Positions 6,072 through 62,201 of a stretch of 64,000 nucleotides of DNA are shown here, in pieces. Below the pieces are notes generated by a model that was not told the origin of the DNA, did no database searches, and saw nothing but the letters and a program-made list of their open reading frames with translations. The position numbers and the translations under genes are program-made. The DNA lies in NCBI GenBank assembly GCA_000165345.1, contig CM000430.1:864001-928000 (forward strand). The letters run 5' to 3'. The stretch's first letter is position 1. The number at the start of each line of letters is the position of its first letter.

Positions 6072-6395
6072 TGTTAAAGATATTTCAAGGAGAAAAAAAA
6101 ATGAAGGAAGAAAAGTTTAGAATAAAAATAGTAAATTTAAAGTAAAGCTTTATATACCCCCAATTAATTAAAAAAAAAAAAAAGTCTTTACTCTTTTAAA
6201 TATTACTATTTATTCTTATTTAGTTGCATTTTTTATTTCTTTTCTTTCAGAAAAAAAAAGAAAATAGAAATAAAAATTTTTTATTTGATTATTCTTCAGT
6301 TATTATTATTACTATTTGCTTTATTCTCCTCACACCATTTTATTTATTAATACCGGTACTAATATTCTTTCGGCGCCTGTCCACAAAGTCTTTAA

Positions 6396-6440
6396 TGCAT
6401 GCATGAGTTGCAATTACGTGTAATTTGAGTGCATGCAAGT
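6396..6440. promoter_or_regulatory. TGCATGCA box cluster (TAATGCATGCATGAG ... GAGTGCATGCAAG) with a TTACGTGTAA core
   Basis: It lies in the divergent intergenic region between the RAD51-like gene and the CDK-like kinase gene, about 20 bp downstream of TTTCGGCGCCTG at 6369. Confidence 0.45.
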
Positions 6441-6540
6441 AATAATTTATTTGCAATTATTATATAAATAATGTTATATTAAAAAAATTAAAAGTTTTTA
6501 ATAAATAATAATAATAATTAAAAATGATTTGGAGATAATA

Positions 6541-6573
6541 ATAATCATAATCATAATCATAATCATAATCATC
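6541..6573. repeat. (ATAATC)5 hexanucleotide microsatellite
   Basis: Read directly from the sequence. Confidence 0.9.
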
Positions 6574-6756
6574 ACAAAAATATAATATTTCATTTTCAAG
6601 TTTGGAATATATTTATAATATTAATAATTTTAATAAAAAAAAAATAAGGTAAAAACTGCTACAATACTACCAATAACAGCAATATAGCATTAATAAAAAC
6701 ACAAAACAAGGCAAAAACTGCATTACAATAGTTACAATAAAATATCAACTAATACC

Positions 6757-7953: not shown

Positions 7954-7969
7954 CTATTCACTACAATTT

Positions 7970-11695
<3,726 letters not shown>

Positions 11696-12338
11696 TTTTT
11701 ACCAAATATTAAAGGGTAAAAAAAAAAAAAAAAGTATGCTTTCTTTCTTTATAATTACAGTTTGTTTTTCATTCCCACGCTTATAATGTAATTATTTTAT
11801 TGAATTCTGTGTCAAAAAAATAGGATAATTATCAAACAGTCTTGACCTGTTGTGCATGTATTTTCTGATCATATGCATTTGCATTACCGCTTCTTGCACC
11901 ATTATAGTTTTTCAATTTTATATTGTAGAATAACCCACAAAGGCGTCAATGTCGTATTTACCATCTTTTAAATTAAATTTTGGATATTTGAGAAGATTGA
12001 AATTATATTTTAATAAATATTAAAGAATTGTTTGAAGTTTGTCTTTTTTTTTAAATAAAAAGTTACCATAAAACTTTCCTTTAATAGTTTTATAATTTAG
12101 TATTTACTAATACTAAATTAAATTTGAAACTATTTCATTTTCTATTCTTTTTTTTCCTTTCTTTTTTTTCTGTTGGTAAAAATCTAAAATAATACTTTTG
12201 ATTTAAAATCTGACCATTCTATATATTTAACTAATATATAATTTTTTTTTTTTTTAAATTAATATTTTCAGATTAATTTTTGTGTAACCGCCCCACACGC
12301 AATTAGTCAAATATATAAATACAGAAAAAAAAAAAAAA

Positions 12339-12419
12339 TGCATTGGCGCCAAGTTGTCATTATATTATTAATTCTTGTAATTAAAAAGAAAAAAATTGAG
12401 AAAATGTGGCGCCAATGCA
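12339..12419. promoter_or_regulatory. Inverted pair of E2F-like sites (TGCATTGGCGCCA ... 55 bp ... TGGCGCCAATGCA)
   Basis: The two 13-nt arms are exact reverse complements. They sit in the divergent intergenic region between the coiled-coil gene (minus strand, ATG at 11695) and ERH (plus strand, ATG at 12880). Confidence 0.55.
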
Positions 12420-12879
12420 ATATTATTAGTTATATGGTCTTCCCACATTATTAAAGTAATATTAACAAATAAATATTATTAATAAGTAAAAAATTGGAGG
12501 AATTAACCGCATATTGTGTTAATGATGGGAAATTTTTAATATAGATAATAATTTAAAAACAATCACAATTTTCATTATCATAAACCAAAGAGGGAAGAAA
12601 TAATATCTTTGAAAAAAAATAATAATAATAAAAAGCCTCTTGGATTATTGTTTTTTTTTTTCTTCTCTTTTTCTTATACATCAAACTAGAAGTCAAAAGA
12701 AAATAAACAAAATTCAAATAATTTACTTGCTTAAATATAAATTAAGTGGAAACCTGTCAGATTAAATAATAATAGTATTCCTCAAAAAATTATTTAAAGT
12801 TATACTATTTCTCAATTTTTTTTTTAATTCTTTCTACATATTAAAGTTGTATATTTTTTTCAATTAAATTATTATAATA

Positions 12880-13338: not shown

Positions 13339-14101
13339 AAATTTAGATAGGAAATCAGAATAATAAATATTAGTATTTTCAATATATTATATATATATTC
13401 TATATTTTGCACATACTGAGTCTCTACAACCTTATAATAGTAATAGTAATAATATTAAAAATAATTATTATTATTATCATTATTGGCCTATTAAAATTCG
13501 GATTAATTAAATAATAAAACTTTATTGGTCATGAAAAATAAGATTATATTGATAACTAATATTAAAAAACAATTTACTCTTGCCATTATGCCTAATATTT
13601 CTAAATATACTTAATTTTTTCCATATTTATTATTATCATCTTTGCATGCATTCATTATTGTTATTATTTAATAATTTTCATGTGGATAAATTTTATTAAT
13701 TTCTGTACCGGCATAATAGTAATTACGTAATACCGGAGTGATAGTAAATTAATTGCATGCATTAAAAAAAAATTTTTTTGATTGCATGTGGATTTGAATT
13801 AAAAAAAATCATATCAAATATTAATAATAATAATAAATTATAAGTAATTGAAATGTCAAATTGATATAAAGCTGATTAAAGAGGGGCAAGAAAAGACTGA
13901 AATTTATTAAACAAATTTCAATATATATAAGAGAAAGATAAATTAGAGATAGAAAAGGAAAGAGGAGAGAAAAAAAACAAATTAAAGACTTGATTTTAGT
14001 AATAATACTATTATTGAAATAAAGAAAAACGTCTAATTTTTAAATAATAATATTTACATACAAATATATATAATATTTATTTATAATATAAATTTAATTT
14101 A

Positions 14102-14813
14102 ATGAAAATGAAGGTAACACTTTTATTTGGATTACTTGGATTATTTAGTGCAGTGAAAGGTGAAATGCAACAAATTAGAAAATATAATTATGGCAAAGAT
14201 TTATGTGAATTTGATATGAATAGTGTATTAAAAAGAATTCCATCATTAACAGATTTATCAACTGGAGATATTGTTCAAACACATTTATCTAATGAAGAAT
14301 TTGAAATTTCAAGTAATGGTGTAAGTTTTTTCATTCTTTCTTTATTTAATAAAATTTTCTAATAATTTTTGTTTTTTATTGAATAAATTTTAGAAACAAA
14401 TTAAATCCATTTCATTAGATGAAATAATAACTCCATTAGAAACTACTCCAAGTACTGATCAATGTTTTACAATCACATATGGAAGTAATGGAGATATTGA
14501 GACTTTATGTTCAGATTCTATTGGTGCTAGAAATTATATAATGAAGAAAATTACAATGAGTGTAAGTTTTTAATAATTATAAAAAAAAAAAAAAAGAAAG
14601 AAATAATTAATTCATTTTCTTTATTAATCTTAGATTCTTTGTTTACATTTGGGGAAAATGAGAACTGAGATTTCTGGAATTTCTCCATTAGAACAGCAAG
14701 CAAGTATGGAATTACAAGGAAATATTCCTGAAGAAGGTACTATTACTGTTCGTTTGGAAGGTATTGATGAAATTCCTAATATTGAAGTTGTAACAAATGA
14801 TGTCAAAAAATAA
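14102..14813 (+). CDS. Secreted protein of unknown function, 3 exons
   Basis: Exons are 14102..14320, 14394..14561 and 14634..14813. Introns are 73 and 72 nt (GTAAGT..TTTTAG and GTAAGT..TCTTAG). The N-terminal signal peptide is MKMKVTLLFGLLGLFSAVKG. The three pieces join in frame to a 188-aa product. Confidence 0.5.
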
Positions 14814-15267: not shown

Positions 15268-18200
15268 TTATTGTTTTTGCAAGCTCTTTTGTTTTGAAAT
15301 GTAAAGCTCTTCCTGAGAAGTCATATAGTTATAATAAGCAGAATTCCCAACGAGGTTGGATCTTTCTCCAACAACTACAACTGAGCCATACTGTGCAGCA
15401 ATTGCTGCTCCACCTAGAACATCCTCCACATCAATATCCTTCAAAATATCTGCTAGTGCTTTGGCTTTTTGTTTATGAACTTTTTTGACCCACTTATGCT
15501 TTCGAAGGTCAAAAACATCTTGGATTAAACAATTCAATCTTGTTGAAATAGATGTATTCTGTAATTCTCTTAGTCTTCCAAACCATTGATCCACAATCAT
15601 CTGTGATTTCTCATTAGAATCCAAGTAATATCCTGTAGTCATAATTAATTGGCAAAGACATTCTACAGCATATTCATCAGGATTCTCTTGTATCATTACT
15701 AGATCAAATACTAGTTCATTCAAACTTCTCATTGGGAACATCTTTCTAATGAAGAGTTCTCCAATCAGTCGGATTATCCCCAAAACATGTAACTTTCGCT
15801 TCCTATACAATATTGCCAGCTCCTCTGAATCGTATTTCTCACGCTCTTCATCTGTTGGAGTCATATTTCGAGGCATATTCTTAAACTCTTGTTCACATCT
15901 TGCCAACAGGGCTTTACTAAAAGCAATTGTTGACTTTCCATCTTTATTCACAAGAACTGGACTCCTCCATTTAAGTATCTGACATAAATCTGCATACATC
16001 TCCGAGAAATCAGGCTCTGTTATTGCTTTATCCAATACTTGCTTCACTAATTCCTCTAGTTCATCCACATTCTTAATCTCATCAATACATACAGCGAGCT
16101 TCTCTGCTATTACTGTAAACTTCTCCACAGTTATTTTATTCAGTAGACTCTTCACAGCTCTCCTTACCGTTTCTAAGGAGTCAACAGTCTGGCCTCCATG
16201 TAAACTTCGTCTCCACGGTCCAACTACTCCGCTGGTACCGCTGCTGCTGCTACTACTACTACTAGTACTGTTGCTATTACTATTACTATTGCTACTACTA
16301 CTGCTGCTAGTAGGAGTTATATTATTACCATTGCCACTACCACCAGTATTATTAGAACTTCCCTCTTTATTATCTGAAGCTGGAATTGACGATTCTAATT
16401 TCTCTCTTCCTTCAATATCTCTGTTTGTTTTTAGGTCGTTCTTCTCTGCAACGATAGAGCTTTCATTAATATTGGTATTGATATTAAAGTCAGCGGATTT
16501 GTTATTTCCATCCAAGTATTCAGAACCCTTGCAAGATAACTTATTACTCATAGAATCTGATCCAGTTGTCACTTTTGCAGAACCAGTATTCTCCGATTCA
16601 TTTGAAGCTGTGGATAACTTCTTTCTAGAATCAACTGATTTCCCTTTCTCTAAACTCATTTCTATATTTGAGGGGTGCTGAGTAACTCCACTTTGGGCCT
16701 TATTTGATATGTTCTTGGACTCATTTTCATTTGGTGAAGCTGATGAAAATACATCTCCGTTATGTGTCTTCTGTTGATCCCCAGTTACATATTTAGGTCT
16801 TTCTTTGGGATGCCCGCCAACTTGGTGACCAGTGGACATTTGACCTCCATTAGTCCCTCCTGATGGGTTGTTGATATTCCTCAAATTCTTATTAAACCTC
16901 TTCTTGTTCTTTTTTTTTTTTAGATCTTCCGAAGTTGTACCACCTACTGCATTCTGCCCATACATATGACCTCCGCTACCCTCTGTTGAATGTTTTGGAT
17001 GAACAAAATTCTGGTTTGGCCCGCCATTGCATGCGTTTGTACCCTTTCCCACATTCTTTGGTCCAGAATATCTTCCATGGCGCCCATATGTGTGATCCCC
17101 GCCATTTTGATTTTTCCATGAACCACCAGTATTATTAGAGAAGTTGTGATTATGACTGTATTGGTTGTGATTATTTGAAGGAATATTTGATCTCAAATTA
17201 TGATCAGTATTGGATTTTTGAGTATTAGAGTAGTCATCTTTAGTCATATCCTTATGTTCTGCAGCAAAATCAGAATTATTGCTCTGTTGTGAATGGGATG
17301 GTTTTTGTGATTGAGCCTGAGGCTGTTGTTGAGTTATGGGCTGGTTCTTTTGTCTTTGTTCAACATTAGCTGTAAGATTATGTTCAGATTCGGAACCTAT
17401 TATTGTTGTCGTTGTCGTTGTTGTCGTTGCTGCTGCTCCAGACCCTGGCTTCCCATTTGAAAAATTCTTGTGTAAAACTGTTCTTGATTCCTTGAGAGAT
17501 GCGTCATTATTGTCTTTTTGGTTAACTCCATGTGATCCTCCTTTACCAATACTGTCCTTGTGCTGATGGTAGTTTGAGTGCTCTCGAGCGCCATGCTGCC
17601 TGCCATACCCATAGTAGTGAGAATCCCCTCCTCCTCTTCTATTTGGAGTTGCATGAAAATCCTTTCTAGAGGTGCTAATACCATTGTTGTTTTGAGAAGA
17701 ATAGTGTTTTCCTCCTTCCTCTTTTGTTGTGGTAGTATGAGGCGTAACATTAGTAATATTGGAAGTATTCGTTGTTGATGATATTACAGTAGTATTTGCG
17801 GGTTTAGATGAGGTAGATGTCGCTACTACTTCTGAGCTAATACTAGTGGTATTTTCAATAGCAGTATTATTGGAAGGGCCATTTTGGAATTGCTGCTGAG
17901 ATTTGTTGTGCTGGTTAAGTTTAGATTGAGAGTTATGCAAAGTCCCTCCTGCACCTCCACCCGAGTTAGAGGATGGGGGAGGTTGTTTTCTATTCAGATC
18001 GTATCCGCCTCCGGAAGAACTTCCATGATTATGTTGTCTATTTCCTGAGTATCCGTATCCTCTTCCTCTTCTATCTTGGTTGTATCTACCCTCATGGTGG
18101 CTGTTATGGCTCGATGACGAGTATGTCTGGTGCTTTTGTTGGAAGTTAGATGATATCTGTCTCTGACTAACTTGTTTGGGATGTTGGGTAGTATTTTGGC

Positions 18201-18975
18201 CTTGGTGTTGTTGCTGGTGTTGTTGTTGCTGCTGGTGTTGGTGTTGTTGCTGGTGTTGGTGTTGTTGTTGCTGGTGATGTTGTTGATGATGTTGCTGATG
18301 ATGTTGTTGTTGATGATGTTGTTGATGATGTTGTTGTTGTTGGTGTTGGTGGTGTTGTTGTTGTTGGTGTTGTTGGTGTTGTTGTTGTTGTTGTTGGTGT
18401 TGTTGCTGATGATGTTGTTGTTGCTGACGTTGTTGTTGGTGATTCTGTTGTTGATGATGGCTTGGCTGTATCTTTTCTGGTTTATTATTCTTTGCATGGC
18501 TGGGTTTAGAATTGTCATCATTTCCTGTAATATAAGTGCTATTATTATTAGTAACATTAGAGTGTTGTCCCTTATCGGAGTTGTCTCTATGAGTACTATA
18601 ATATTGGTCTTTAACACCTCCATTGTTAACAGAGAAGTTTTTGTTAGAACTACTAACATTATTTACATGTTTATTGCTATTTAGACGTGGTTCGTTGTTA
18701 CTCATGTGTTCTTTATTTCCATTGTGATTGCTTACAATCTCATGAGAACTTTCACTCACATCCTTAGAACTCCTACTTATATTGCCATTCACGTGATTAT
18801 CATGCAAACCTCCGCCAGTACTTGCATTTGTGGATACATATCTGTTGTGTATTTTATCCTTTTCTTTGCCTATACTGCTCTTTTGAGCTCCATTCGTTGG
18901 TGACCTTTGAAAGGGACGCCTGAACTTTCGCTTCTTATCATTAGTATGACGCTCCTGTTGTTTCTCTGCCACCAT
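15268..18975 (-). CDS. MIF4G-domain protein (eIF4G-like) with a ~950-aa low-complexity N-terminal region
   Basis: 1235-aa ORF. The C-terminal ~250 aa carry a MIF4G-type HEAT-repeat motif (ELVKQVLDKAITEPDFSEMYADLCQILKWRSP...LHVLGIIRLIGELF...DPDEYAVECLCQLIMTTGYYLD). The N-terminus is S/N/G/H-rich, with a ~100-aa Q/H tract encoded by CAA/CAC/CAG repeats. Confidence 0.7.
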   Translation of the reverse strand: MVAEKQQERHTNDKKRKFRRPFQRSPTNGAQKSSIGKEKDKIHNRYVSTNASTGGGLHDNHVNGNISRSSKDVSESSHEIVSNHNGNKEHMSNNEPRLNSNKHVNNVSSSNKNFSVNNGGVKDQYYSTHRDNSDKGQHSNVTNNNSTYITGNDDNSKPSHAKNNKPEKIQPSHHQQQNHQQQRQQQQHHQQQHQQQQQQHQQHQQQQHHQHQQQQHHQQHHQQQHHQQHHQQHHQQQQHQHQQQHQHQQQQQHQQQHQGQNTTQHPKQVSQRQISSNFQQKHQTYSSSSHNSHHEGRYNQDRRGRGYGYSGNRQHNHGSSSGGGYDLNRKQPPPSSNSGGGAGGTLHNSQSKLNQHNKSQQQFQNGPSNNTAIENTTSISSEVVATSTSSKPANTTVISSTTNTSNITNVTPHTTTTKEEGGKHYSSQNNNGISTSRKDFHATPNRRGGGDSHYYGYGRQHGAREHSNYHQHKDSIGKGGSHGVNQKDNNDASLKESRTVLHKNFSNGKPGSGAAATTTTTTTTIIGSESEHNLTANVEQRQKNQPITQQQPQAQSQKPSHSQQSNNSDFAAEHKDMTKDDYSNTQKSNTDHNLRSNIPSNNHNQYSHNHNFSNNTGGSWKNQNGGDHTYGRHGRYSGPKNVGKGTNACNGGPNQNFVHPKHSTEGSGGHMYGQNAVGGTTSEDLKKKKNKKRFNKNLRNINNPSGGTNGGQMSTGHQVGGHPKERPKYVTGDQQKTHNGDVFSSASPNENESKNISNKAQSGVTQHPSNIEMSLEKGKSVDSRKKLSTASNESENTGSAKVTTGSDSMSNKLSCKGSEYLDGNNKSADFNINTNINESSIVAEKNDLKTNRDIEGREKLESSIPASDNKEGSSNNTGGSGNGNNITPTSSSSSSNSNSNSNSTSSSSSSSSGTSGVVGPWRRSLHGGQTVDSLETVRRAVKSLLNKITVEKFTVIAEKLAVCIDEIKNVDELEELVKQVLDKAITEPDFSEMYADLCQILKWRSPVLVNKDGKSTIAFSKALLARCEQEFKNMPRNMTPTDEEREKYDSEELAILYRKRKLHVLGIIRLIGELFIRKMFPMRSLNELVFDLVMIQENPDEYAVECLCQLIMTTGYYLDSNEKSQMIVDQWFGRLRELQNTSISTRLNCLIQDVFDLRKHKWVKKVHKQKAKALADILKDIDVEDVLGGAAIAAQYGSVVVVGERSNLVGNSAYYNYMTSQEELYISKQKSLQKQ
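18190..18470 (-). repeat. Imperfect (CAA/CAC/CAG)n coding trinucleotide repeat (poly-Q/H)
   Basis: The plus strand reads as tandem TTG/GTG/CTG triplets. These are the reverse complement of CAA/CAC/CAG and lie inside the MIF4G gene. Confidence 0.8.
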
Positions 18976-19970
18976 ATATCAATAAAAATCTGGGACAAAT
19001 TAATTTAAAAGGAATCAACACCCTTGTCAAATACGGGCATACAACACATACATTATTTATTAATTGCGTATGCTTACACCTTTTACCGTGGGGGGAGGAA
19101 TTTATAAATCTTCTAAAATTCCTAATGGGGGGCAGTCATAGGTACCTGTAATAATCAGATTAGACTTCACTTATTAATTCCAATTATTATAATATACGTA
19201 AAATTTCAATTTTTATTACTTATTTAATATATACGTATTTAATATATTTTTCTAATTATTTATTTATTAATTTATTACTATTTATTAATAAATTGAGCAA
19301 AATTCCCGCCCAAAGTAATATATTACGTGTATTTAAAAATATAATAAAATTAATAGTCCATATAAATTAAAAAAAAATTAATTAATAATATACAAGAACT
19401 CCCCTCAATTTTGTAGTGGTACTTTCCGCCAAATTTTGCGTGATCACAAGTCTACATTTGAATGACAGTACTATTACTAATTATATATTATCTTATTTTA
19501 ATAAGAACATAAGTACTATGATGAATTTATTTTATAAGAAGTTTGTGTTATTCAAAATTCTTTCTTTTTTCTTTCTCTCGATTTAAGTGGTACTTACTCC
19601 TCCCATAGATTTTTCAGTAAATCAACATTTTCCGAGTTTTTGCTGTATAATCTCTAAAAGTTATCAATAGTAATTCAGCCATTCTATTTTTAAACTTTTT
19701 TTTTAACATTCATTTCTACCAGTGATAAATTTAATACCCAATTAAAAATACCCGCCAAAGTTTTTGTCAATATTAATCAGATAACGATGGAATACTAGAA
19801 TTGAAGTATATTAAATGATAGTGGGAATTTTTGGCTATAGTTGTAATGATTAACTTCAACGATTTTATATTTTTAGAATTATTTATTTATATTTATCTAA
19901 CTCTAGTATTCAATAACCTATACTAAAAGATTCTTTACAATATATATCTTTGCTATAGCTAATGTATGTA

Positions 19971-20025
<55 letters not shown>

Positions 20026-21399: not shown

Positions 21400-21675
21400 A
21401 TTTTTATATACTTATAAATAAATAAATTTTTTTTTTTAAGTTATTTGGGCTTAAATGCTCTAAATACGTCAATTGTACATTTTCCAAATTCGTCAATAAA
21501 TCTATAAATAATTATTTTATATATTTATGTATGTATAAATATATATTGAAATAAAAACAAGTGTTATGAAATTTTAACAAAATTGTATATGCAAAAATAA
21601 GTGGCCTGAATTGCATGTAATTTATTACACAAATAGGCGGGAAATCCCAAATAATTGCATATATGTTATTACAAC

Positions 21676-22614: not shown

Positions 22615-23257
22615 GTATCTCTATTAATAAATTTATTCCAGAATAATCAGTGGTATAGGCTTATTTTAAAGTATTTGTTGTCATTACTCAGTATGGCAAT
22701 TAAAATTAGCCTGAATAAAAGGTATATATATCTGACACTTATAAATTTATTTTCTTTTTTTTAAGAAAAAAAAAAAGATGCCTGTTTTCTACCTATTTAT
22801 TCCAATTTTATAGATTGCATGAACTTTCCTTTTTCTAAAAAGCCGTTTGGCGCCTAAAGTGCATTATTTTTTATATTATTTTCTTTTATAAAGTTTGAAC
22901 TCGAGAATATGGGAAAAAAGAGGGAAGGAGGGGGGTGAGAAAAATATATATAAATATTAGAGAATAGAGATGAGAAAGGATAAAGAGCAATGACGTGAAA
23001 TTAGGTCAGCACTCATCAAGTACAAAAAAAATGAAATGAAGATTTATAACTTTCTAATTAAAAAAAAAAAATTTAAAATCAACTTTATATACAATTATTT
23101 TTTGACCAGTTTTTAAAATAATTTTAGACTTCCGCCGCCCCCCAATTAAAAAAATTACATGTAATTTAGTATGCCGCCTAATTTATTTTATATACAATAT
23201 TATTTATTTTATTAATGCCGGTACTCGTGTCTCTTTGTCTAAATTTTTAAAAACGGG

Positions 23258-23287
23258 TGGCGCCAACCATCTTTTTGGCGGCAACTG
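23258..23287. promoter_or_regulatory. E2F-like double site GGGTGGCGCCAACC ... TTTTTGGCGGCAA
   Basis: It lies 275 bp upstream of the EF-1beta ATG. Further CCGCC and GCCGG motifs sit at 23131-23226 in the same divergent promoter. Confidence 0.5.
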
Positions 23288-24305: not shown

Positions 24306-24796
24306 GAGTTTTGAGATTTAATTCAGCTAAAATAGCTAGCTAGTATTTAACCTAATACACGACTCCTTTCTAGTAATTTTTTTTTCTTTGACATTTTCAA
24401 TCTGTATTACTTATTCTGATAACTTCTCGTCTTGAATATAATAAAGAATAACATTAATATCTTCCAATTTGGAATTTTAATTTAATTAATTATCTTCAAT
24501 TTGTGCTCAATCAGTGATTCTTATACTTCTTTTTCATTTGCTCCCCCAATTTTGCATGGCTTGATAATATTATTAATGAGAATAATTGGCGCCATCAACG
24601 AATGCCGGCAATAATATTCCTTAAAAGAGTTGTCTTGAATCATTCCCGCCAAAGTAAAGCCAATAAATATTATTCGATTATTGACTAAATAAAAGAAAAT
24701 TATTAATAAGGAATTGGATCGAGCAGGATAGTCAACATAATTAGTCAGGAGAGAAAGAGATTTAGTAGAAACGGGTATTTTTTTGACTTTGGAGAG

Positions 24797-27988: not shown

Positions 27989-29751
27989 AGATTTTAAATA
28001 AAAAAAAAATTACAGTTCAACAAGGAATTGTTATTCTTTTATTTGAGAAAAAAACTTTTTATTCAATGATTGAAAACAGCTTTTAAATCCAAAATAGAAT
28101 AGAAATACTTATTGGAAATGGATAACACTTTTTATCTAAAAAAAAATTCTACCTTTAAAAAAAAATAATAAACCAATAAGTTACAATTTTAATAGCACTC
28201 ACTCTTATGGTATTCTTAATTTATTATTCAGTATTCTGAGTGATAGTGTATCAGTTTTAGGAAATAATAAAGTATTCATTCATTATTAAAGAAAAAAAAA
28301 GTCTGAACATTAGTAAAACAAGATGATAATTTTCTAAAATTTATCAACAAAGTATTAATCAACCCATTGTTTTACATTATATTGATTTAACAAAAGCACC
28401 ATAATAAATTATAATCAAACTGTAAACTATTTACTTAATTGCATGCTTTTTTTTTCTATTGAAATAAAAATCACATATTATTTATTTTCACTTATACTTT
28501 ACCGCCAAAACCCCATTTTATTATTTATATATATTACCCATTCAACAAAAATTAAAACGAACCCGCCATAGTAGGCAAGACGCGGTACGCAGGGAAATTA
28601 TTAAATAATAAAGGTATCGGGTACTTATAACATGTATTGGTAAATTAATTATATGTATTAAAAAACAAATATATATTTTCATTTATTTTTGCAAATATAT
28701 TATATATTCGCAAATAGTAACCTATCATATACATTAATTCTTTATTTATTTAATAAAATCAAATCATATAATCTAAATTTTTGGCTATACATTAATTTAA
28801 CTAAATAATAACTTTACGTCTGGCGTCTATCAATTAAATTGTTTATTAAATAAATTGGTATTTAAAACTAAAAGAAATAAACGTATACGTGGAAATATAT
28901 TAAACAATAAGTTAATTTAAATAGTAAATTAATTTGCGAGGCAAATAATATATGTACGTGCACCAGTCAATAGCCTACAAAATATAAGAGCTAAGTACAT
29001 GGTACTTTGCAGTGCGCATATGTATATCCATGTAAACTAAATTTTATATTATATGTTTGGAAATTTGTCTGTTTTTTTTTTTTTTGTAATTTAGAGAATA
29101 AGTTTTAGAAGACTATTTATTATATATAAACAACAAGAGGCGAGAATCGAAGTATTTTGTAAGAAAACTATTACAGAAAATATTAAGGTACCTAGCAAAG
29201 TAAAAAGGTTATAAATTATTCAAGTTTTTCATACAAATTACTGCCTATATACATATATATTTTTATTATTTTTATTAATTTACCATATATTATTATATAA
29301 ACTTGAAGGTATATTCTCAAATAGTAAGCTCGCAAATCCATATTAAGAAATACATTTCAAAATTGATGTATATATTTTGAATATTAATAAAATAGGTAAC
29401 ATATAATAATATTTGGATATATTTTCTTAATCACAAGTTTTTTTGGTCCATTAACAAAAGTTTAATTAGTATTACAAACACTAATCCTAATTTATAAGGG
29501 AAAATCAGAGCAAAAGAACATACTACAGGAATTGTATACTTTGTATATTTGTATTTAACAATCAACAAATTTATGTGTTTATAAAGTTTATAAATATATA
29601 TATAATATATATATATTTATATATATATATATATATTATATATATGCTATAATTACATTTATATATTATAATTTATATTCTAAAGCTACTTATAAACTAT
29701 TTCACTAGTTATTTATATATTGGAAAGTTAATATAAAACAAATAAGTAAGA

Positions 29752-29794
<43 letters not shown>

Positions 29795-31697: not shown

Positions 31698-32404
31698 ATG
31701 ATAATTTCAATAAAAATTATTAAAAGGGTAAATATGTGGCTTTATTTTTATGGCTTCAAACAACTATTGGCTAAAAAGTGAAACCTCTACTTTAGAACTA
31801 TTTTATTATAATTGCCTCAGATTGTTGGGATGTATAGTATTATTAGTTATTTACAAAAGAGTTAGGTGTTTTACTTTGCAAGTTGCTTTTGAGATAAAAC
31901 TCAAACAATATGAACATCTCAGGGCTTCTTTAATTTTTTTTTAAATTGTTTTGGGATTTTTTTTGTTTTAATTATTTACTTTCTCCATTAACTTTTCTTG
32001 GTTTCTGTTTTTTTGTGCCTATATTGTATTTACATGCGCATGCAATTTCATTGTTTGCTTGTTTTTAAAATTAAATTACGTGTTCGGGCGCCATACCCAG
32101 GAATTTATAAAGTAATTGCTTGTGGAAGGTTGGGTACAATATTGCCAAATAGAGGGGTTAAATTGTGAAAGAAAAAGATAAAAGAAAATGGGGTTCAGAA
32201 ATTTGATTTTTTGTTTCTAAACTTTGGAAAATTAGATAACAAAAAAAATAGTAAATTTTGAGCTACAAAATAAGAGTTTTTTTTCAAGTTGGAAGGAATT
32301 AACTTTTAGCCAACAGTAGAAAATAAGATTTAAAATTTGAAAGAAGATATTGAACAGAAGATAAATAAAGTTAATTTTAGTGAAGAAAAAATTAAGAAAA
32401 AAAT

Positions 32405-35940: not shown

Positions 35941-35974
35941 ATGGCGCCATCAAATCCGGTACCTAATACCGGTA
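35941..35974. promoter_or_regulatory. Composite ATGGCGCCAT, TCCGGTACC and TACCGGTA palindromes
   Basis: Three palindromic GC-containing motifs fall within 34 bp. They sit in the divergent promoter between the SF-assemblin-like gene and the 36220 gene. Confidence 0.45.
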
Positions 35975-36948: not shown

Positions 36949-37319
36949 TCCAAGGTTCTATGTTTAATCTTCCATTATAAATTATTTAATTAAAATAAAC
37001 TTCCACAATTATCACCGCATATTACTGGGTTTATAATAATATTTCTATGACTGTATATTGTTTTAACTTTATAGCATTTAAACTTTTTTTTTGAATTGCG
37101 TTTTATTTACTTGTTTCTTTTTAAATTTTTCTTCAATGTCTTTTTGAACATTATCTGCATTATATCGCTTAACAAATCGACTATTTTCCTTTGAAAGCAA
37201 AAATTATTTTTATTGCATTTTGAAACAATTAACTTTTCTCTTTTCCCTTAATCATAGAACCCAATTCTAATTGCACATGGCTTTGCATGCAATTATATTC
37301 AAAAAATGACACGTAAGAG

Positions 37320-37344
37320 GCGGCGCGCGCGCCACTATAAATAG
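37320..37344 (+). promoter_or_regulatory. 17-nt all-GC palindromic element (GGCGGCGCGCGCGCCAC) immediately followed by TATAAATA
   Basis: It lies 340 bp upstream of the ATG of the 800-aa gene at 37684. It is the only pure GC block in the window. It overlaps E2F-like GGCGCC/GCGCGC cores and is followed by a TATA box. Confidence 0.5.
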
Positions 37345-40086: not shown

Positions 40087-40102
40087 AGATCAATATCTTA
40101 TA

Positions 40103-44533: not shown

Positions 44534-45510
44534 TTCTCATGTTAACTGCTTCTATTTGTTTAAATCTGCTTAAATAATAACTTTAAGTCTTTTAATCTGT
44601 GAATTCTAGATACCTGTAATTCACGACCAATACATTGAATTTCATCAAAAACAAAATTATGAAAATAAACTTTAAAAAAACCCGTGTTTCTTTCTCTATA
44701 AATATCTTTGCCTTTTACTATACTGCCTTTCTGAATTATAATAACAATAAGTAATAATTCCAGAATTCTTTTGACTCAATTTGAAATATTAACCTTTAAA
44801 TGTTTTGGCGCCATGTCATTTTGACATTAACATTTGTAAGAATTACTATAAATATTGTTAGTATTATTATTGTTACAATTAATTCATTATTCCAACTTTT
44901 AATTCGTGAATTCAAATAAATTTCTTTAATTTAGTTGATTGAATGTCTTTTTAACTTTGTTATATTATTTTCAAAATGTTCTTAAACTTTTCCTTAACAT
45001 GTAACAATTTTGTTATAACTTTAAAATTAATTTAATAATTTAATTAAATGAAATTAACTCATTAATGTATTTTTATTTGTAATTGAAATTATAAATGAAG
45101 AATAGTATTGCTTGCAAAAATTGATTATTTATTGCTTCACGAACTTTCAACATAAAATTCAAGATTATTCACTATGTCAAATCAATAAAAAGTAGAAAAA
45201 GCTTCTCTCTTGAATTTTGTTCATATCTCCATTTATTAAATAATAATAACAATAATATTAATAGGAATCATATATAACTATTGAATACAATTTTTAAAAA
45301 AATTATATATATAATAAACCAAAATTATAATACTAAAACTAATAGAATATTTATGTACACAAAATTTGCATGCAACCCTATCTCTCTAATGTAACATTGC
45401 ATGCAAATTTCGATTTTTTGTTAATAATGACACGTAATCAATTATAATGACCTCCCCACACTTGGCGCCCAATGAATTATTCGGGTAATTTTAATATTGC
45501 AATAATTATT

Positions 45511-52324: not shown

Positions 52325-52745
52325 TGAATTTGAATCTTAATGTTTTTGTTGATACTCGTTTTCTGCATTTTACCAAAATAACAGCCAGCAATACTTTCTT
52401 TCTTAAAAGTTAACTTTAATTGAGCGCAAGAATATGCCCGATAACTATGAAATTGAGGGGGCGGGGAGAGAATTAAATATTCATGCATTAATTGGACTTT
52501 AGGTAATGAAAATACAATGAATAACTTTAAAATTGTTTCAATTTAATATTCTTCCACTCTTAAGCCTCTATTTGTATTAAGAATAATAAGTTAGCATAAA
52601 ATTACTTTATTATTAATGTATATGAAAATATTTCGATGTTAGTTGTAATTTTAGCCATTTTCTTTATTTCGTTCATATAATTTCCTGATTATCTAATTCC
52701 TGAGTTATTTGAGAATTCTTGTAATTAAATACATTAATATATATT

Positions 52746-53834: not shown

Positions 53835-54975
53835 TATGAAATTCTACACTTTTGTTAATATAATCTAACTTTGATAATAGAGTTTCTTGGCTTTTTGTTT
53901 TTATATTTAAGCTTCTTTCTTAAATATTACTTTTTCCACTTTATTCTTTCTTTTTTGGTCTTTAAACCCGTATATTGAATTAAAATTCCGACTATAAAGG
54001 TACCTAAATCTTAAAAAATTTACCGACCTTTATAATTCGCTATTTTTTTTTCGTTTTCCCTCTTTATTTCCTTTTATATTACTATGCAAACAATTTTCCG
54101 ATTATGAGGGGTAAATTTTTAATTACACTTTTTGGCACCAATTACCATATTTATCACTTTAAAAATAAAATTGAAAGTAAAAAAAGAGAGAAGAATTTAT
54201 TATTCCACTTTATTAACACTCAAATTATCCAGTCCTCACTATTTTGTATATTGCTAAAAGAAATATCATTTTCCTCTTAATACTGCATTTACCCGCTACT
54301 CTTTTCATGTCAAATTTTCTGCAAACGATTTTTGTCAATCTGCATGCACAGTTGTCCACATTAACTTGTATTGAATAATCTTTTTATTTGATTAGGTGAA
54401 ATTTTGAATTATAATTTGTTTTTTTTAATTATTTTTAAATTTAGATAACAAATAAATATCCAAGTGTTAATTCATTTCTAATTATTTATTTTATTAAAAA
54501 ACTACAAACAATTACTTTAACTTTTTTTTTTAATACAGACTAATTACATAATTATTTATATGCATGCAAATTTATATACTTGGAAAAATTTGCATTATTA
54601 GTGTTCATGCAATGAAAGTAATTAAGTACTGGAGCCATATTACATGTAAAACAATTGATGTGGTAGTATTAGAAAGGGGGCAAAATAAAGTATTTAAAAA
54701 GAACAAAATCGTATGTATGAGATACTGTTAAGTTAGTTGTTTAAATAAATATTTGAATCTGTAAATTAGAATTATAAAATAGTTATGTAATTTTTTAATA
54801 TATTTTATTAGAAATTTTGTAATTGGCGGCACATTAATTGATAAAGGTCATTTCTTTACAATTGACGATATATCTGAAAAAAAAAAAATTAGGAATTAGA
54901 AATAGGGAGTTTTATTATTAACTAATAGGAAACAAATAAGACGTGGAATATAAAACATTATAGATTTTGGAAAAT

Positions 54976-57540: not shown

Positions 57541-57766
57541 TTTAATTTATTGAGACTCGACCCGAATTAAGCCCTTTATTAAAACTCTCACAAGAATTCT
57601 TGCCTCAGGTACGCCTAAAGGTACATACCAGTCTTGGTCCTAATCTTTACTCAGTCTTTACAAGTACTTTTTCAGAGAAAAAAAAAAGTGAAATATTCCG
57701 TCTTTCTCTTAATTTCCTCTAATAACCACTAATTCTTTTTCTTTAATCAAAACGTTTGCAAGTGTT

Positions 57767-57879
57767 TTGGCGGTCAACTGTGCTAAATTGCTAAGTTGGT
57801 GGCGGTAAAACCGCTTCATGGCGGCACCACATAGACAAAATTCCGAGGTTGAAAAAATTGTAAATTGCTGCCCGCCCTA
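57767..57879. promoter_or_regulatory. Cluster of four E2F-like GGCGG/GGCGGC motifs (TTTTGGCGGTC, TTGGTGGCGGTAAAACCGC, ATGGCGGCACC, TGCCCGCCCTA)
   Basis: Read directly from the sequence. It lies between the minus-strand small-TM gene (ATG at 57540) and the plus-strand coiled-coil gene (ATG at 58457). Confidence 0.5.
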
Positions 57880-58456
57880 AAGCTGTTATTATTACTATTA
57901 ATTCAAATAAGCCTATAGAGATGTAATCAAAATATAGAAATGTGGGGAAAATGCAAATTCGAATTTTTAAAATCAATAAAACCCTAATTATTTTAATGTT
58001 TTAAAACACCCAACTCTTATTTTTACCTTTAATTAAATTGCAGAAAGAAATACTAAAGAATTTCTGGGATATTAAAAAAAAAAAGGTTGACTATTAATAA
58101 AATGAATATTTTGCATGCAAAATGCAAGTAAAACAAATTTATCATATATTGCCTACTTTTCTTTATTTCTGAACTTTTTGTATGTTTACTATTTTTTTAA
58201 TTTATTGTAAAGTTTGTTTACATAGTCATTTACTAAAGTTTACAGTTTTCTGTTATATTGGACTAATTTCATTCTGAAACCTAAGCTATTGTAAATTTTT
58301 TTATTTCCTTTTTTTCGAGCTAATATTAAATTGAATAAATTTTTGATTTATTAATTAAGTTCCATTTTATTAATATTAATGCCAACTGTAAACTAATAGA
58401 GAACTCAGCGTTATATATATACCTATTTATATCTTTGAAATACCTGGTATAAAAAG

Positions 58457-59052
58457 ATGGATGAATCGTCTATACATTTACCTGTAATAAATACATGGAA
58501 TAAACAAATGGAGAAAGTTAAACTATTCATGAAGCAAAATTCTAACATAGACTTTGATGATATAGAAAGAAAATTTCTTATTTTACAAAAGGAAATGACT
58601 GATGAAATTAAAGGAATGCTCTTTGCAAACTATAAAAACATTGATTTTGCTCAACAAAAAGTAAGTCCATCCAATTTTTTCTTATTAGATTAAAAAATCC
58701 ACAAACTTTACTTTAATATACTTTTATTCTAATATTTATTATTAATTAACCATCTCTCTTTCAGGATTGCCCTAAAATGAATAGACTAATAACAGAGAAC
58801 AAATTATTACTTAATCAACTTAAAGAAATTGGTAAGGAATTGTTATTAAAGAGTGAACAAATTCAAGAAAAAAACGCAATGATAGACAAATATCAGAAAG
58901 AAATAAGGAAACTTGAGTTAGAGCAAACTGTGAATAAAATCCAAGAAAACATGGACAAAGATCAAAACTTGGAGCTTGTATCCAAACTCGAAAATCAAGT
59001 TTTTGCACTTAATCAGAAATTAAATATTATTAGGGATACAGTTAACAATTAG
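58457..59052 (+). CDS. Small coiled-coil protein, 2 exons
   Basis: Exons are 58457..58660 and 58765..59052. The 104-nt intron is GTAAGT..CTTTCAG in phase 0. The 163-aa product is ...FAQQK/DCPKMNRLITENKLLLNQLKEIGKELL... Confidence 0.5.
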
Positions 59053-59530
59053 ACATAAGTTGAGGTAAATTGTGACTATTTTTCAGCTTTTATTTTTTTT
59101 CTCTCTATTCTTTGTCAATCCATTTTATTGCGTTATTAATACCTCACATAAAACCACTAACTTCCAATCGTCACTCCTCTCTATAATATCTTAAGTTTTC
59201 AAAAAACTCAAACAATTTAAATCATATCTTACCCTTGTGAACAAATAACTAACTATTGTTTAGCATCTAATTCACTTGCGTTTATAACTTTAGTCAATTA
59301 AAAAGTTTCCTTCAGTTTGGCGCCAACATGGTCCATGCAGTTTATGATGAGGAGAAAAAACGCGAAAACTGAATAATAAAATTTAAGTTAACAAGTAAAA
59401 AAAATTTGTGGGTAGAATTGAAACTTTTCATGATAAGAACTAAGCCATTAGACTAATAACTAACCATTCTTGTAGTTCAACTGAGATACTTTGCTCATTT
59501 TGATCAAATTAGTGATTAGTGAAATCAGAA

Positions 59531-61825
59531 ATGATTAATGGCTTATATGGATTAATTAACACTGGTACTTCTATATTGAAAGGAGGTAGGAATCCAGAAA
59601 TTGGATTGGATGACATTCACAAAAATCGAATTAAAAATGAAATAGAACAACTTAAATTAAACCAATGCAAATTGGAAAAATGCAGGGACAATCTGACATT
59701 CGAAAATAACCGTTACCATACGCAATATTGTCATTTTCACGTCAATAATGTAACTATGTATGATAAGGAAAGTAGGAAGAATTATGTTCTAATTGATATT
59801 TCAATTATGATAGAAGATGTAGATACTTTTCTTAATAATGAAATCCCTGTACAAATAATACTATATAAAGACTTTCCATTTAGCCCTCCAGATATTACTT
59901 TTCCAAGTACATTTTGTTTCCCAAGTCTAAGTGATGGTCGCAGTTTTACAGCAGAAATCCTTCATGAATGGTCACCAAGTATCAATTTATTGACTACTGT
60001 TGATTCAATTATAAAGTTTTTAAAAAGTTATAGTACTCATATTGCAGTTGTAGGCCCTTCTGATATGTTTATAGGAAGCTATAGAAACCCCATATCATTT
60101 AACTACCAATGCTATAACTCTTTGGTATACCCAATTCTGGGTACCAAAATTATCTTTGAAGATGACGTTTTTAAACACATTTTTGAAAATAACTCTATTA
60201 AAGAACAAAATGTGATATCCCAAAGAGGAAGAAATCTGGTTTCATCATTCATTCCAATCCCCTTAAATACTAGAGGGCTTAGACGAGAAACTATGAATTG
60301 GAGAATTGAAAAGCCATGTATTAATATTGATTTTGTATTCAACAATACAAATGTGATGTTATTCGATTCCACTATGCTTGTTTTAGAAGTTTGTCAAAAA
60401 ACCAAGCAAAATGGGATATTTCAAGCAAGCAATCCCTCCAAAACCTCTTCATCTTCTGATGAAATCATATCAGACTCCACTTTGCAAGGTAATGTAGCAT
60501 ATTGGCTATATATGCCTGCAATAAGTCACATTATCGACTGTCATGGCAAGCTTATTTTTGGAAACCAAGGTACTCTCCCAGAATATATTTCAAATAAACT
60601 AAGTAAACTCGAATATTCAGAATGCCTAGTTATAATCTTAGGTTATGACTTCCTTTTTGAGAAATCTCCTATATTGTTTTATCAAAATGAAGAGTTAATC
60701 CAAACTCCTAAAGATTCAACTAGACCTATCATCATTGAACTAAAGTTTCATACTACCAAAGCTAATCATGAAAGCTCTTGTTGCCACTCTTTTGCCACAA
60801 ACTTAAGAGAGAAAGTTGCCAAATTAGATTCTAATTTCCCAAAAAACTGTCATAATCCAAAATGGAACTCCTACTTCGAGTTTGATTGTCTTTCTAACTT
60901 GAATAAGAAATATCAACAAGCAATCACTGGAAATCATATATATCTTTCATCTGAAATTATACAGAGATGGGTTGTTATATGTTCTAAGCTTATTGAACAA
61001 TCTTCCCTTCTTTCTGAAACAGACGAAAAATACATACAAGAATCATCTTCATTGGTAAAGCAGATGCAAGACATTCTAGTTAGCCCTGTTGTAAAACACA
61101 TTCTAAACTCGAATACAAGTAAGCCAAGCAAGGTCAGTAGCATTGATGAAGACCTTCAAAATGATACCTTTTATAAGCATCTCGAGGAATACTCTCCTGA
61201 GAACCCCACCAAACATGAATTATCTCAACAAGAGTCTCAAAAAGCGGAAACCCCACGCCAACAGGATGTCCAAGAAAACCAAATTCTCCACCCCATTCAT
61301 GAAATTCAGCCAATACAAAATAATCCGAATTCTATGAAAGTCACACACAAAGATGGAACTTCACCAACTCCAGAAATTCTACACATTGAAGGTACCACAC
61401 ACACTCAAGAAATTCCTTTATCACATGAAATTCTAACCATCCAAGAAACTTCTCCAATACAAGAAATTCCACCCATCCAAGAAGCTTCTCCAATACAAGA
61501 AACTCCACCCATCCAAGAAACTTCTCCAATACAAGAAATCCCAACCATCAATGAACCTTCTCATACCCATCCACAACTAATTAACCTCGACATTTCCTCA
61601 GAAACTGAAAATGATAATCATCTTGATGAATCTACCAACAACTATGGTGAAATATCAAAATCATGTGACCAAAATATGCAGATCATCCAACCATCCAATT
61701 ATACTAGTTCCCTACAAAGTGATCATCCCACATCTACAGATCCAAACCAAACATATGCTAATCAAAACTACATAAGTCTCTATGAATCTAGTAGTGATGA
61801 ATTCAGTGTTCGTGAATTTGACTAA
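59531..61825 (+). CDS. UBC-fold (UEV-like, probably catalytically inactive) domain protein with C-terminal P/Q/E-rich tandem repeats
   Basis: YKDFPFSPPDITFPSTFCFPSLSDGRSFTAEILHEWSPSINLLTTVDSIIKFL follows the E2/UEV core pattern (YPFxPPxVxF...HPN..G.ICL..L...WSP...I..VL.SI.SLL). A Ser sits in the active-site position. The C-terminus carries PIQE(T/A)(S/P) repeats. Confidence 0.5.
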   Translation: MINGLYGLINTGTSILKGGRNPEIGLDDIHKNRIKNEIEQLKLNQCKLEKCRDNLTFENNRYHTQYCHFHVNNVTMYDKESRKNYVLIDISIMIEDVDTFLNNEIPVQIILYKDFPFSPPDITFPSTFCFPSLSDGRSFTAEILHEWSPSINLLTTVDSIIKFLKSYSTHIAVVGPSDMFIGSYRNPISFNYQCYNSLVYPILGTKIIFEDDVFKHIFENNSIKEQNVISQRGRNLVSSFIPIPLNTRGLRRETMNWRIEKPCINIDFVFNNTNVMLFDSTMLVLEVCQKTKQNGIFQASNPSKTSSSSDEIISDSTLQGNVAYWLYMPAISHIIDCHGKLIFGNQGTLPEYISNKLSKLEYSECLVIILGYDFLFEKSPILFYQNEELIQTPKDSTRPIIIELKFHTTKANHESSCCHSFATNLREKVAKLDSNFPKNCHNPKWNSYFEFDCLSNLNKKYQQAITGNHIYLSSEIIQRWVVICSKLIEQSSLLSETDEKYIQESSSLVKQMQDILVSPVVKHILNSNTSKPSKVSSIDEDLQNDTFYKHLEEYSPENPTKHELSQQESQKAETPRQQDVQENQILHPIHEIQPIQNNPNSMKVTHKDGTSPTPEILHIEGTTHTQEIPLSHEILTIQETSPIQEIPPIQEASPIQETPPIQETSPIQEIPTINEPSHTHPQLINLDISSETENDNHLDESTNNYGEISKSCDQNMQIIQPSNYTSSLQSDHPTSTDPNQTYANQNYISLYESSSDEFSVREFD
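61400..61556 (+). repeat. 18-bp coding tandem repeat (CCAATACAAGAAAYTCCA / CCATCCAAGAARCTTCTC, ~8 copies)
   Basis: Alternating 18-nt units encode PIQE(I/T)P and PIQE(T/A)S. The antisense ORF 61341..61544 is an artefact of this repeat. Confidence 0.85.
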
Positions 61826-62201
61826 CTTTCTGTCAAATCCTCTTAATTCCAATCATTTTTATTTAATATTTAAAATCTCATAAAGCAACATGCAAAATTA
61901 AATATCAACTAGGCGCCCTATTCTTAGCGCTCATTGGGGCGTCAGATTACGTATAGTGGGGGGTAGAACTTTTTATATATTACAAAGTTTGAATTAGTAA
62001 AAACTAAAGTGCGTTAGAGGTGGAGGCTGTTGCGGTAGTAGTAGTGTAGTATTACTACTATAAATTGTACTATTAGAAACAAATACACAAACAAATAAAC
62101 TCAATTCATGTCTCGCTATAATTTTTAGTTATTCTATTTTTTATAAAAAACTAATTCTTGTCAGATTTTTTTATACAATTTCTTTTTCTTAATTTTCAAG
62201 G

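Follow-up and report, generated by a model that had tools for sequence, protein, structure and literature searches.

Described E2F/DP sites and the Cryptosporidium motif

The canonical E2F/DP sites of animals and plants read TTTSSCGC, with TTTCCCGCC and TTTGGCGGG in Arabidopsis. These sites mark an Rb-controlled cell-cycle and DNA-replication regulon, whereas those of Cryptosporidium precede almost every gene. The E2F/DP site has been described as a 6-bp [C/G]GCGC[G/C] core between T-rich and A-rich sequence, and the Cryptosporidium sites share with their animal and plant counterparts a pseudo-palindromic CG core with T on one side and A on the other, a promoter-proximal location and the capacity to work in either orientation (PMC3734150). 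No Rb orthologue has been reported for the genus (PMC3734150), which is reported as the only apicomplexan genus to retain E2F/DP (PMC12246861). The parasite is reported to have two or three genes for E2F and two for DP (PMC4117751, PMC12246861).

Bankier et al. 2003 are credited with first noting the motif (by PMC3734150 and PMC12246861). A GGCG-core motif was reported in 2007, without a positional pattern in a small gene set (PMC1779779). Later, E2F (TGGCGCCA) was listed among the most over-represented C. parvum upstream motifs, and the parasite was considered perhaps 'unusually reliant' on E2F (PMC3734150). Of 200 co-expression clusters, 161 had the motif upstream (PMC4117751), and it also dominated ATAC-seq peaks, over half of which were at bidirectional promoters (bioRxiv 10.1101/2025.01.17.633476). 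The E2F-dominated promoter code that the first-pass annotation proposed had thus already been described for Cryptosporidium (PMC3734150, PMC4117751, bioRxiv 10.1101/2025.01.17.633476). The E2F-like promoter motif in the window, i.e., the whole 64-kb stretch of DNA analysed here, is a correct finding and a known one, since such an upstream motif has been reported for C. parvum since 2003-2013. Compared with the C. parvum 'E2F' family (TGGCGCCA, [C/G]GCGC[G/C], GGCGGG; PMC3734150), the organism, the words, the restriction to upstream non-coding DNA and the general use are all alike. Nothing essential differs, and the window is a 64-kb sample of the known pattern.

Motif words and their distribution in the window

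The assignment of the window to Cryptosporidium proved right: 21.5 kb were 100% identical to C. parvum assembly GCA_015245375.1 CP044421.1, and the encoded V-ATPase subunit H matched the C. parvum Iowa II / CPATCC_000512 protein (EAK88638.1) exactly. The deposited annotation was mapped onto the window and provided the gene models.

Sites were counted with the core patterns SGCGCS, GGCGG and CCGCC, which gave 38 site clusters, close to the 'about 40' occurrences first estimated, and a GC core lay 0-8 bp from all 30 positions originally listed. Dinucleotide shuffles predicted 0.28 copies of GGCGCC, but 13 were present, 12 of them outside genes. The other all-GC palindromic hexamers were rare (GGGCCC, CCGCGG, CGGCCG, CCCGGG and GCCGGC 0-1 each; GCGCGC 3). 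SGCGCS was present 17 times and GGCGGG/CCCGCC 11 times. An unbiased k-mer scan singled out no specific word families other than TGGCGCCA/CCGCCAAA and TGCATGCA. In promoter-side DNA, the 8-mers GGCGCCAA (10 observed, 0.05 expected), TGGCGCCA (7 observed, 0.02 expected) and CCGCCAAA (8 observed, 0.13 expected) were strongly enriched, each with no genic copy. The site consensus was (T)(T)T-GGCGCC-A(A)(A) and TTn-CCGCC-AAA, which appears to fit the described E2F/DP site. With respect to the 12-bp E2F/DP architecture, the 6-bp core was present and the T/A flanks were biased at 46-71% over three positions. However, the exact 12-mer TTTGGCGCCAAA, which headed the first-pass annotation, was absent from the window, where TTGGCGCCAA occurred twice and TGGCGCCA seven times instead. 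TTTCCCGCC/GGCGGGAAA occurred once, at an intronic site, and strict TTTSSCGC matched only six times in 64 kb (three intergenic, three in genes). The T-tract is therefore shorter than in animal and plant sites, with TGGCGCCA as the preferred word. To describe these sites as canonical TTTSSCGC is an overstatement, given how degenerate their T-tract is.

Promoter-side DNA was defined as divergent or tandem intergenic regions (n = 19, 16.4 kb in total). It held 31 of the 38 sites (1.89 per kb), whereas 300 dinucleotide shuffles averaged 2.2 and reached 8 at most, and 17 of the 19 regions had at least one site, which bears out the view that the motif occurs in almost every 5' intergenic region. Gene spans (46 kb) held 7 sites, or 0.15 per kb, where shuffling gave a mean of 3.4. 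Six of these 7 sites were coding and all lay within the GC-rich eIF4G-like gene 15268-18975, while the remaining one (21636) was intronic. Site density in promoter-side DNA was thus 12-fold that of genes (binomial P = 8e-13 for the split), and the enrichment persisted despite a lower GC content of intergenic (~24%) than of coding DNA (~29%; crude ORF model). No core-pattern site was found in the nine convergent intergenic regions, which is weak evidence alone because these regions total only 1.57 kb. The statement that all but one or two motifs are intergenic holds for GGCGCC but not for the looser cores (7 of 38 in gene spans), and their placement as 'usually divergent' was overstated, with 18 divergent and 13 tandem sites.

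Chance clusters of rare GC words or mis-called genes could in principle yield such a contrast, given that the mapped gene models have no UTRs and the convergent regions are short. Nevertheless, this compositional or annotation artefact is practically untenable and has already been refuted by the shuffles, by the binomial split and by the recurrence of the same pattern in six other species with independent annotations.

Position and conservation of the sites

The nearest distance from a site to an ATG was 138 bp and the median approximately 300 bp. Bases up to 137 bp from an ATG make up 22.6% of promoter-side DNA, yet none of the 31 promoter-side sites fell there (P = 4e-4 per site, 0.013 per region), and 25 of the 31 were 138-500 bp upstream (P = 0.002). 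The single sites of divergent regions at 6372 and 35943 were near the centre of the spacer. Taken together, the density split and this bias relative to start codons leave the finding standing against both an equal frequency in coding and intergenic DNA and a placement indifferent to the ATG. The sites and their orthologous counterparts are listed in Table 1.

Table 1. E2F-like sites in the window, with their context and orthologous sites.
Site	Position	Strand	Context	Orthologous regions
Single GGCGCC	6372..6377		Near centre of divergent 6072-6756 (Rad51-like gene / kinase); 303 and 382 bp from ATGs	
Three sites: CCGCCCC 12288, TTGGCGCCAA 12343, TGGCGCCA 12407	12288..12413		Divergent 11696-12879; spacings 57 and 63 bp	
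Three CCCGCC/CCGCCAAA sites	19306..19760		Divergent 18976-20247 (eIF4G / deoxyhypusine synthase)	Three sites also in C. meleagridis and C. ryanae
Intronic TTTCCCGCC	21636..21644	-	Annotated intron of gene 21441-22614; only non-coding site outside intergenic DNA	Conserved in C. meleagridis, annotated intergenic there
Five sites	22849..23281		Divergent 22615-23561 (hypothetical 276-aa gene / EF-1 beta)	4, 3, 2 and 1 sites in C. meleagridis, C. felis, C. ryanae and C. muris
ATTGGCGCCATC + TTCCCGCCAAAG	24588..24654		Tandem region; 209 and 151 bp upstream of V-ATPase H ATG	
CCGCCAAA	26539..26546		Tandem region V-ATPase H / RRM gene	C. meleagridis site at about equal distance
Pair CCGCCAAAA / CCCGCCATA	28502..28568		~1.4 kb upstream of Myb ATG	Conserved as pair in C. 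meleagridis; C. felis sites at similar distance
GGGCGCCAT	32087..32092		Upstream of EF-hand gene	
CCCGCCAAAA	34556..34563		154 bp upstream of 134-aa gene (- strand)	
Single TGGCGCCA	35943..35948		Centre of divergent 35643-36219; 274 and 303 bp from ATGs	Single site in C. meleagridis, C. felis and C. muris
Compound GGCGGCGCGCGCGCC	37319..37333		Upstream of 800-aa gene	
TTTTGGCGCCAT	44807..44812		276 bp upstream of SNF2 gene (- strand)	
TTGGCGCCCAA	45464..45469		Same tandem region as 44807 site; 138 bp 3' of patatin stop codon	
Weak variant CCGCGCAAA	48588..48595		Only GC core in divergent 47950-49260; fails strict pattern	
GGGGGCGGGG	52460..52465		Upstream of Rad51; equally readable as G-box	
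TTGGCGGC	54825..54829		148 bp upstream of Lsg1-like GTPase	C. felis region with TTTGGCGGCAAC
Four sites	57769..57877		Divergent 57541-58456	Four sites in C. felis, one in C. andersoni
TTTGGCGCCAA	59319..59324		209 bp upstream of UBC gene	TTACCGCCAAAA/TTACCGCCAATA at -117/-116 in C. andersoni and C. serpentis
AGGCGCCC	61912..61917		Upstream of cyclophilin	Sites in C. felis, C. andersoni and C. serpentis

Orthologous intergenic regions with sites were found in C. meleagridis, C. felis, C. ryanae, C. muris, C. andersoni and C. serpentis. In an alignment of the DNA upstream of V-ATPase H from C. parvum, C. meleagridis and C. felis (mean column identity 44%), both sites and a TTTGCATG formed conserved islands, with the motif words kept while the surrounding spacer diverges. 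The retention in six species and these islands constitute a phylogenetic footprint and, at the level of sequence, indicate purifying selection on the sites. At three gastric-clade loci, 17 sites were located in 13.3 kb of promoter-side DNA versus 1 in 46 kb of genes, and sites lay 72-191 bp from the nearest ATG.

These data also bear on whether the GC cores act chiefly at the level of DNA structure or chromatin, by positioning or excluding nucleosomes or by marking transcript boundaries, with no sequence-specific activator involved. The location of sites within open-chromatin peaks (10.1101/2025.01.17.633476), their mid-spacer placement in tandem regions (mean relative position 0.47) and the site at 45464, so close 3' of a stop codon, would suit such a role. 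Yet the enrichment is specific to a word rather than an effect of GC (13 GGCGCC against 0-3 for the other all-GC palindromic hexamers), the flanks are constrained, the exact word is retained amid diverging spacer, and convergent regions, which have 3' ends only, contain no site. We therefore regard a mainly structural role as very unlikely.

Candidate binding factors and promoter organisation

The sites correspond to the published Cryptosporidium 'E2F' promoter cis-element, and we consider it probable that they are bound by E2F/DP and mark the open promoters of most genes. According to this proposal, the element would consist of a short GC core, (T)GGCGCC(A) or the half-variant TTnCCGCCAAA, embedded in very AT-rich spacer some hundreds of bp before the start codon. 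The putative binders are most likely the winged-helix E2F/DP heterodimers of the parasite, and the element would most likely mark the open-chromatin promoters of the majority of genes. A single element, being palindromic or orientation-free, may often serve both genes of a divergent pair. The enrichment confined to promoter-side DNA, the avoidance of ATG-proximal DNA and the conservation across the genus were observed here; the genome-wide over-representation, the location in ATAC-seq peaks and the existence of E2F and DP genes come from the literature. Binding of E2F/DP to the element and transcription driven by it are what we infer from the two together. No experiment on E2F/DP occupancy in vivo or binding in vitro at such sites was found in the literature searched, and a 2025 review noted that most regulatory components lack functional validation (PMC12246861).

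The same review treats E2F/DP as the binding factor by inference (PMC12246861), which leaves room for real promoter elements that have another reader, such as an ApiAP2, zinc-finger or Myb-type protein, and only a superficial likeness to E2F sites. The degenerate T-tract and the overlap of several sites with G-box-like runs would agree with this. However, C. parvum AP2 domains selected TGCAT, CACACA and the G-box on protein-binding microarrays and the E2F motif was treated as non-AP2 (PMC4117751), the palindromic [C/G]GCGC[G/C] core, flanked by T and A, agrees with the E2F/DP site as described (PMC3734150), and Cryptosporidium alone among Apicomplexa is reported to have kept E2F/DP (PMC12246861). 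In addition, Toxoplasma orthologues did not show the C. parvum motifs in their upstream DNA (PMC1779779). Another reader thus seems unlikely, and binding by E2F/DP is preferred. Some individual sites (52460, GGGGGCGGGG; 23132, CCGCCGCCCCCC) are equally readable as a G-box, and the G-box has been reported as ApiAP2-bound (PMC4117751).

The second word family, TGCATGCA (ApiAP2 motif AP2_1), occurred 12 times in promoter-side DNA against 0.13 expected, with no genic copy. It resembles the E2F-like word in being equally enriched, equally excluded from genes, palindromic and conserved across species, but differs in having a demonstrated binder, namely AP2 domains on protein-binding microarrays (PMC3734150, PMC4117751). 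It adjoins the E2F-like site rather than replacing it: in 11 of the 15 regions holding both, the two motifs were ≤65 bp apart (null mean 5.6 regions, P = 0.003). A tentative and rather doubtful extension is that the E2F-like core forms half of a positioned composite core promoter, together with a TGCATG (ApiAP2) word within ~65 bp, which would set the start site or sites of one or both flanking genes throughout the genus. Its distance upstream of the ATG would be at least ~140 bp for C. parvum and 72-191 bp for gastric species. The proposal is based on one 64-kb window and a few orthologous loci. Sites are absent from the ATG-adjacent zone. Open chromatin yielded no AP2 motifs in the ATAC-seq study (bioRxiv 10.1101/2025.01.17.633476), and neither the co-localisation of the E2F-like and TGCATG words nor the ATG-proximal gap was found stated in the motif literature searched.

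Genes behind site-bearing regions encode a kinase, eIF4G, deoxyhypusine synthase, EF-1 beta, V-ATPase H, an RRM protein, a Myb protein, Rad51, a GTPase, a UBC enzyme and cyclophilin. These diverse functions and the 17 of 19 promoter-side regions with sites support the earlier claim of general rather than cell-cycle use. Unlike in a cell-cycle-restricted E2F regulon of the animal or plant type, the sites were not confined to cell-cycle and DNA-replication genes, as those 17 regions include translation, V-ATPase, cytoskeleton and ubiquitin genes. To this known promoter organisation of Cryptosporidium, our analysis makes small additions, namely the gap of ~138 bp before the ATG, the distances of 72-191 bp at three gastric-clade loci and the closeness to TGCATG motifs.

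E2F-like sites on the gene map

The window has a GC content of 27% and carries closely packed eukaryotic genes, mostly without introns, including those for an ABC transporter, a kinase, eIF4G, deoxyhypusine synthase, EF-1 beta, V-ATPase subunit H, a Myb protein, SNF2, patatin, Rad51, an Lsg1-like GTPase and cyclophilin. The first-pass annotation had correctly assigned it to Cryptosporidium: its V-ATPase H is identical to the C. parvum Iowa II / CPATCC_000512 protein (97% identity to the C. meleagridis cluster representative), and the DNA is 100% identical to GCA_015245375.1 CP044421.1 over 21.5 kb. Introns or later start codons occur in several genes; a crude ORF-based model was therefore set aside in favour of the gene calls deposited for matching C. 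parvum assemblies, mapped onto the window. This gave 29 genes, with 8 divergent and 11 tandem intergenic regions (together termed promoter-side) and 9 convergent ones, in which only 3' ends meet.

Sites had been described as canonical TTTSSCGC, but this strict pattern has only six matches in the window, half of them genic, and the 12-mer in the title of the first-pass annotation has no occurrence there. A GC core was found within 0-8 bp of all 30 positions that it listed. As the strict pattern is too stringent for C. parvum, we used the core pattern SGCGCS, GGCGG or CCGCC instead, which under the deposited gene model yields 38 site clusters in the window. The 19 promoter-side regions hold 31 of these (1.89 per kb), while 300 dinucleotide shuffles of these regions averaged 2.2 sites, with at most 8. 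Gene spans hold seven (0.15 per kb; shuffle mean 3.4), six of them in the eIF4G-like gene and one (21636) in an intron, and no E2F-like core was present in the 9 convergent regions of the window. The claimed excess of GGCGCC-type motifs in intergenic over coding DNA thus stands.

The palindromic core GGCGCC itself occurs 13 times in the window against 0.28 expected. Intergenic GC is lower than coding GC, and composition therefore opposes the enrichment rather than causing it. A general GC-island effect was rejected, given that the remaining all-GC palindromic hexamers are rare or absent (0-3 occurrences each in the window), and the possibility that the pattern is an artefact is excluded. At least one site was present in 17 of the 19 promoter-side regions, close to the original statement that almost every 5' intergenic region has one; the exceptions are listed in the table, together with other features of interest.

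Features of the window (window coordinates)
Feature	Coordinates	Remarks
Promoter-side exception	13339-14164	Only promoter-side region without any E2F-like core; three TGCATG words, one G-box
167-aa gene	14165-14813	Downstream of 13339-14164
Promoter-side exception	47950-49260	Only CCGCGCAAA
eIF4G-like gene	15268-18975	38.8% GC vs 20-35% in neighbours; all 6 coding E2F-like cores of the window
Single palindromes	6372, 35943	At the centre of two divergent regions; 35943 lies in the 577-bp spacer 35643-36219
Neighbouring sites	12288/12345/12408	Spacings 57 and 63 bp
Neighbouring sites	24588/24646	Spacing 58 bp
Neighbouring sites	28502/28563	Spacing 61 bp
Neighbouring sites	19306/19426	Spacing 120 bp
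E2F-like pair	28502-28568	In region 27989-29939; ~1.4 kb before the Myb ATG, ~0.5 kb past the RRM stop
TTTCCCGCC	21636-21644 (- strand)	Best match to the canonical plant/animal E2F word anywhere in the window; within an annotated intron of gene 21441-22614
Compound run GGCGGCGCGCGCGCC	37319-37333	Includes the window's only (GC)n stretch; could comprise two or three overlapping E2F-type cores
TGCATG words TGCATGCA/GCATGCAA	e.g. 6396, 24553, 26565, 34565, 59334, 61889	Promoter-side
Perfect 42-bp palindrome ATCAAAATCTTATAATAGTGA/TCACTATTATAAGATTTTGAT	45511-45552	Begins 52 nt past the patatin stop codon; ~45 bp from E2F-like site 45464
Long (AT)n microsatellites	19962-20024, 29594-29645, 29745-29796	In promoter-side spacers

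Anatomy and placement of the sites

When all 6-8-mers of promoter-side DNA were scanned without bias, only two specific word families emerged apart from low-complexity runs of (AT)n and poly(A), namely an E2F-like family (TGGCGCCA/GGCGCCAA/CCGCCAAA) and a TGCATG family (TGCATGCA/GCATGCAA), the latter being the ApiAP2 motif AP2_1. The 8-mers of both have zero or one genic copy, and both are general upstream words previously described for C. parvum (PMC3734150; PMC12246861 Table 3). Sites of the GGCGCC/CCGCCAAA type lie, for instance, at 24588, 24646, 35943 and 59319. At the half-sites of the 12 intergenic GGCGCC sites, T makes up 71% at -1, 58% at -2 and 46% at -3, with A mirrored on the opposite side. 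The 20 asymmetric sites have the consensus TTn-CCGCC-AAA, and the best-conserved half, CGCCAAA, has 11 intergenic and no genic copies. In its core and in the bias of its flanks towards T and A, the consensus resembles the E2F/DP site that PMC3734150 describes. The minus-strand TTTCCCGCC site is kept in C. meleagridis, where it is intergenic under a shorter gene model.

The proposed bias relative to start codons also holds. Sites are a median of about 300 bp from the nearest ATG, and 25 of the 31 promoter-side ones fall 138-500 bp upstream (P = 0.002); none is nearer than 138 bp, a zone that takes in 22.6% of promoter-side bases. In tandem regions sites sit mid-spacer (relative position 0.47) without skew towards stop codons. 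This placement, together with the site-free convergent regions, led us to reject a role in 3'-end formation or termination. A fixed distance was suggested by the five C. muris sites, 126-142 bp upstream of the ATG to which they were measured, and was dropped when C. andersoni and C. serpentis extended the range to 72-191 bp; we therefore report only a proximal preference. Apart from the spacings in the table, adjacent sites are 18-85 bp or >280 bp apart, with few pairs in all.

Neighbouring words and other spacer features

The TGCATG family shows an enrichment equal to that of the E2F-like word, TGCATGCA occurring 12 times against 0.13 expected with no genic copy. In 11 of the 15 regions with both words they lie <=65 bp apart (null mean 5.6, P = 0.003). 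Adjoining the V-ATPase H sites, TTTGCATG is kept in C. meleagridis and C. felis. The 167-aa gene downstream of the site-free promoter-side region may have an AP2-only promoter, or may share a transcript with the enhancer-of-rudimentary gene that precedes it.

C. meleagridis and C. felis also keep the E2F-like pair found between the RRM and Myb genes, at comparable distances. From the pair to the Myb gene there is no ORF of at least 90 aa, tRNA or Rfam match, which suggests that the 5' UTR is very long or that a transcript, perhaps non-coding, is missing from the annotation. Structured RNAs and tRNAs were sought as an explanation of the long spacers, and none were found. The 42-bp palindrome is the only one other than (AT)n among the best 25 by length in the inverted-repeat scan, and ATATATAT is about 15-fold above expectation in promoter-side spacers.

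Conservation, predicted binder and significance

Syntenic loci of C. meleagridis, C. felis, C. ryanae, C. muris, C. andersoni and C. serpentis were compared, and orthologous regions carry like sites, often at equal distances. For example, the sites upstream of V-ATPase H are at -209 and -151 in C. parvum and at -199 and -143 in C. felis. The alignment of the EF-1 beta/V-ATPase H spacer has a mean column identity of 44%, with conserved islands (ATTGGCGCCAT, TTCCCGCCA and TTTGCATG) common to C. parvum, C. meleagridis and C. felis. The three gastric-clade loci hold 17 sites in 13.3 kb of promoter-side DNA versus 1 in 46 kb of genes. The two C. felis loci (L010 and L014) have a GC content of 42-47% versus 26-34% in other species; motif enrichment in their promoter-side DNA persists (3.9 vs 1.4 per kb, L014), with a weaker contrast.

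According to the published reading, such sites would be bound by the parasite's E2F/DP heterodimers and would serve as a general promoter element. The E2F proteins are cgd1_1560 and cgd6_1430, and the DP proteins cgd7_3650 and cgd8_1850. Of 200 co-expression clusters, 161 have the motif upstream (PMC4117751), and it is dominant in ATAC-seq peaks of sporozoites, over half of these peaks being at bidirectional promoters (10.1101/2025.01.17.633476); E2F/DP is reportedly retained by Cryptosporidium alone among apicomplexans (PMC12246861). We infer that E2F/DP is probably the binder here as well. Our literature search turned up no work on it by ChIP, DAP-seq or EMSA, and a 2025 review describes most components as without validation (PMC12246861). 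That another sequence-specific factor reads the sites is unlikely, and that they act mainly through structure or chromatin is very improbable.

The promoter motif is already known: Bankier et al. 2003 are credited in PMC3734150 and PMC12246861 with first noting the word, a GGCG-core motif was found in 2007 (PMC1779779), and the name E2F, with the proposal of an unusual reliance on it, comes from PMC3734150. In the literature searched we did not find stated the site-free ATG-adjacent zone, the E2F-like/TGCATG proximity or the 72-191 bp nearest-ATG range of the three gastric-clade loci, all three observed in one window plus a few loci. The window brings no new principle; it is a clean, fully quantified local example, covering site-bearing regions, start-codon distances and conservation over seven species, and could be used to test direct E2F/DP occupancy and the effect of promoter mutations. 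Cryptosporidium ranks among the major causes of diarrhoea in children, and little is understood of how its genes are regulated. The E2F-like word, close to universal at promoters, lends support to the published view of a parasite dependent on an ancient E2F/DP system, unlike other apicomplexans with their reliance on ApiAP2 factors.
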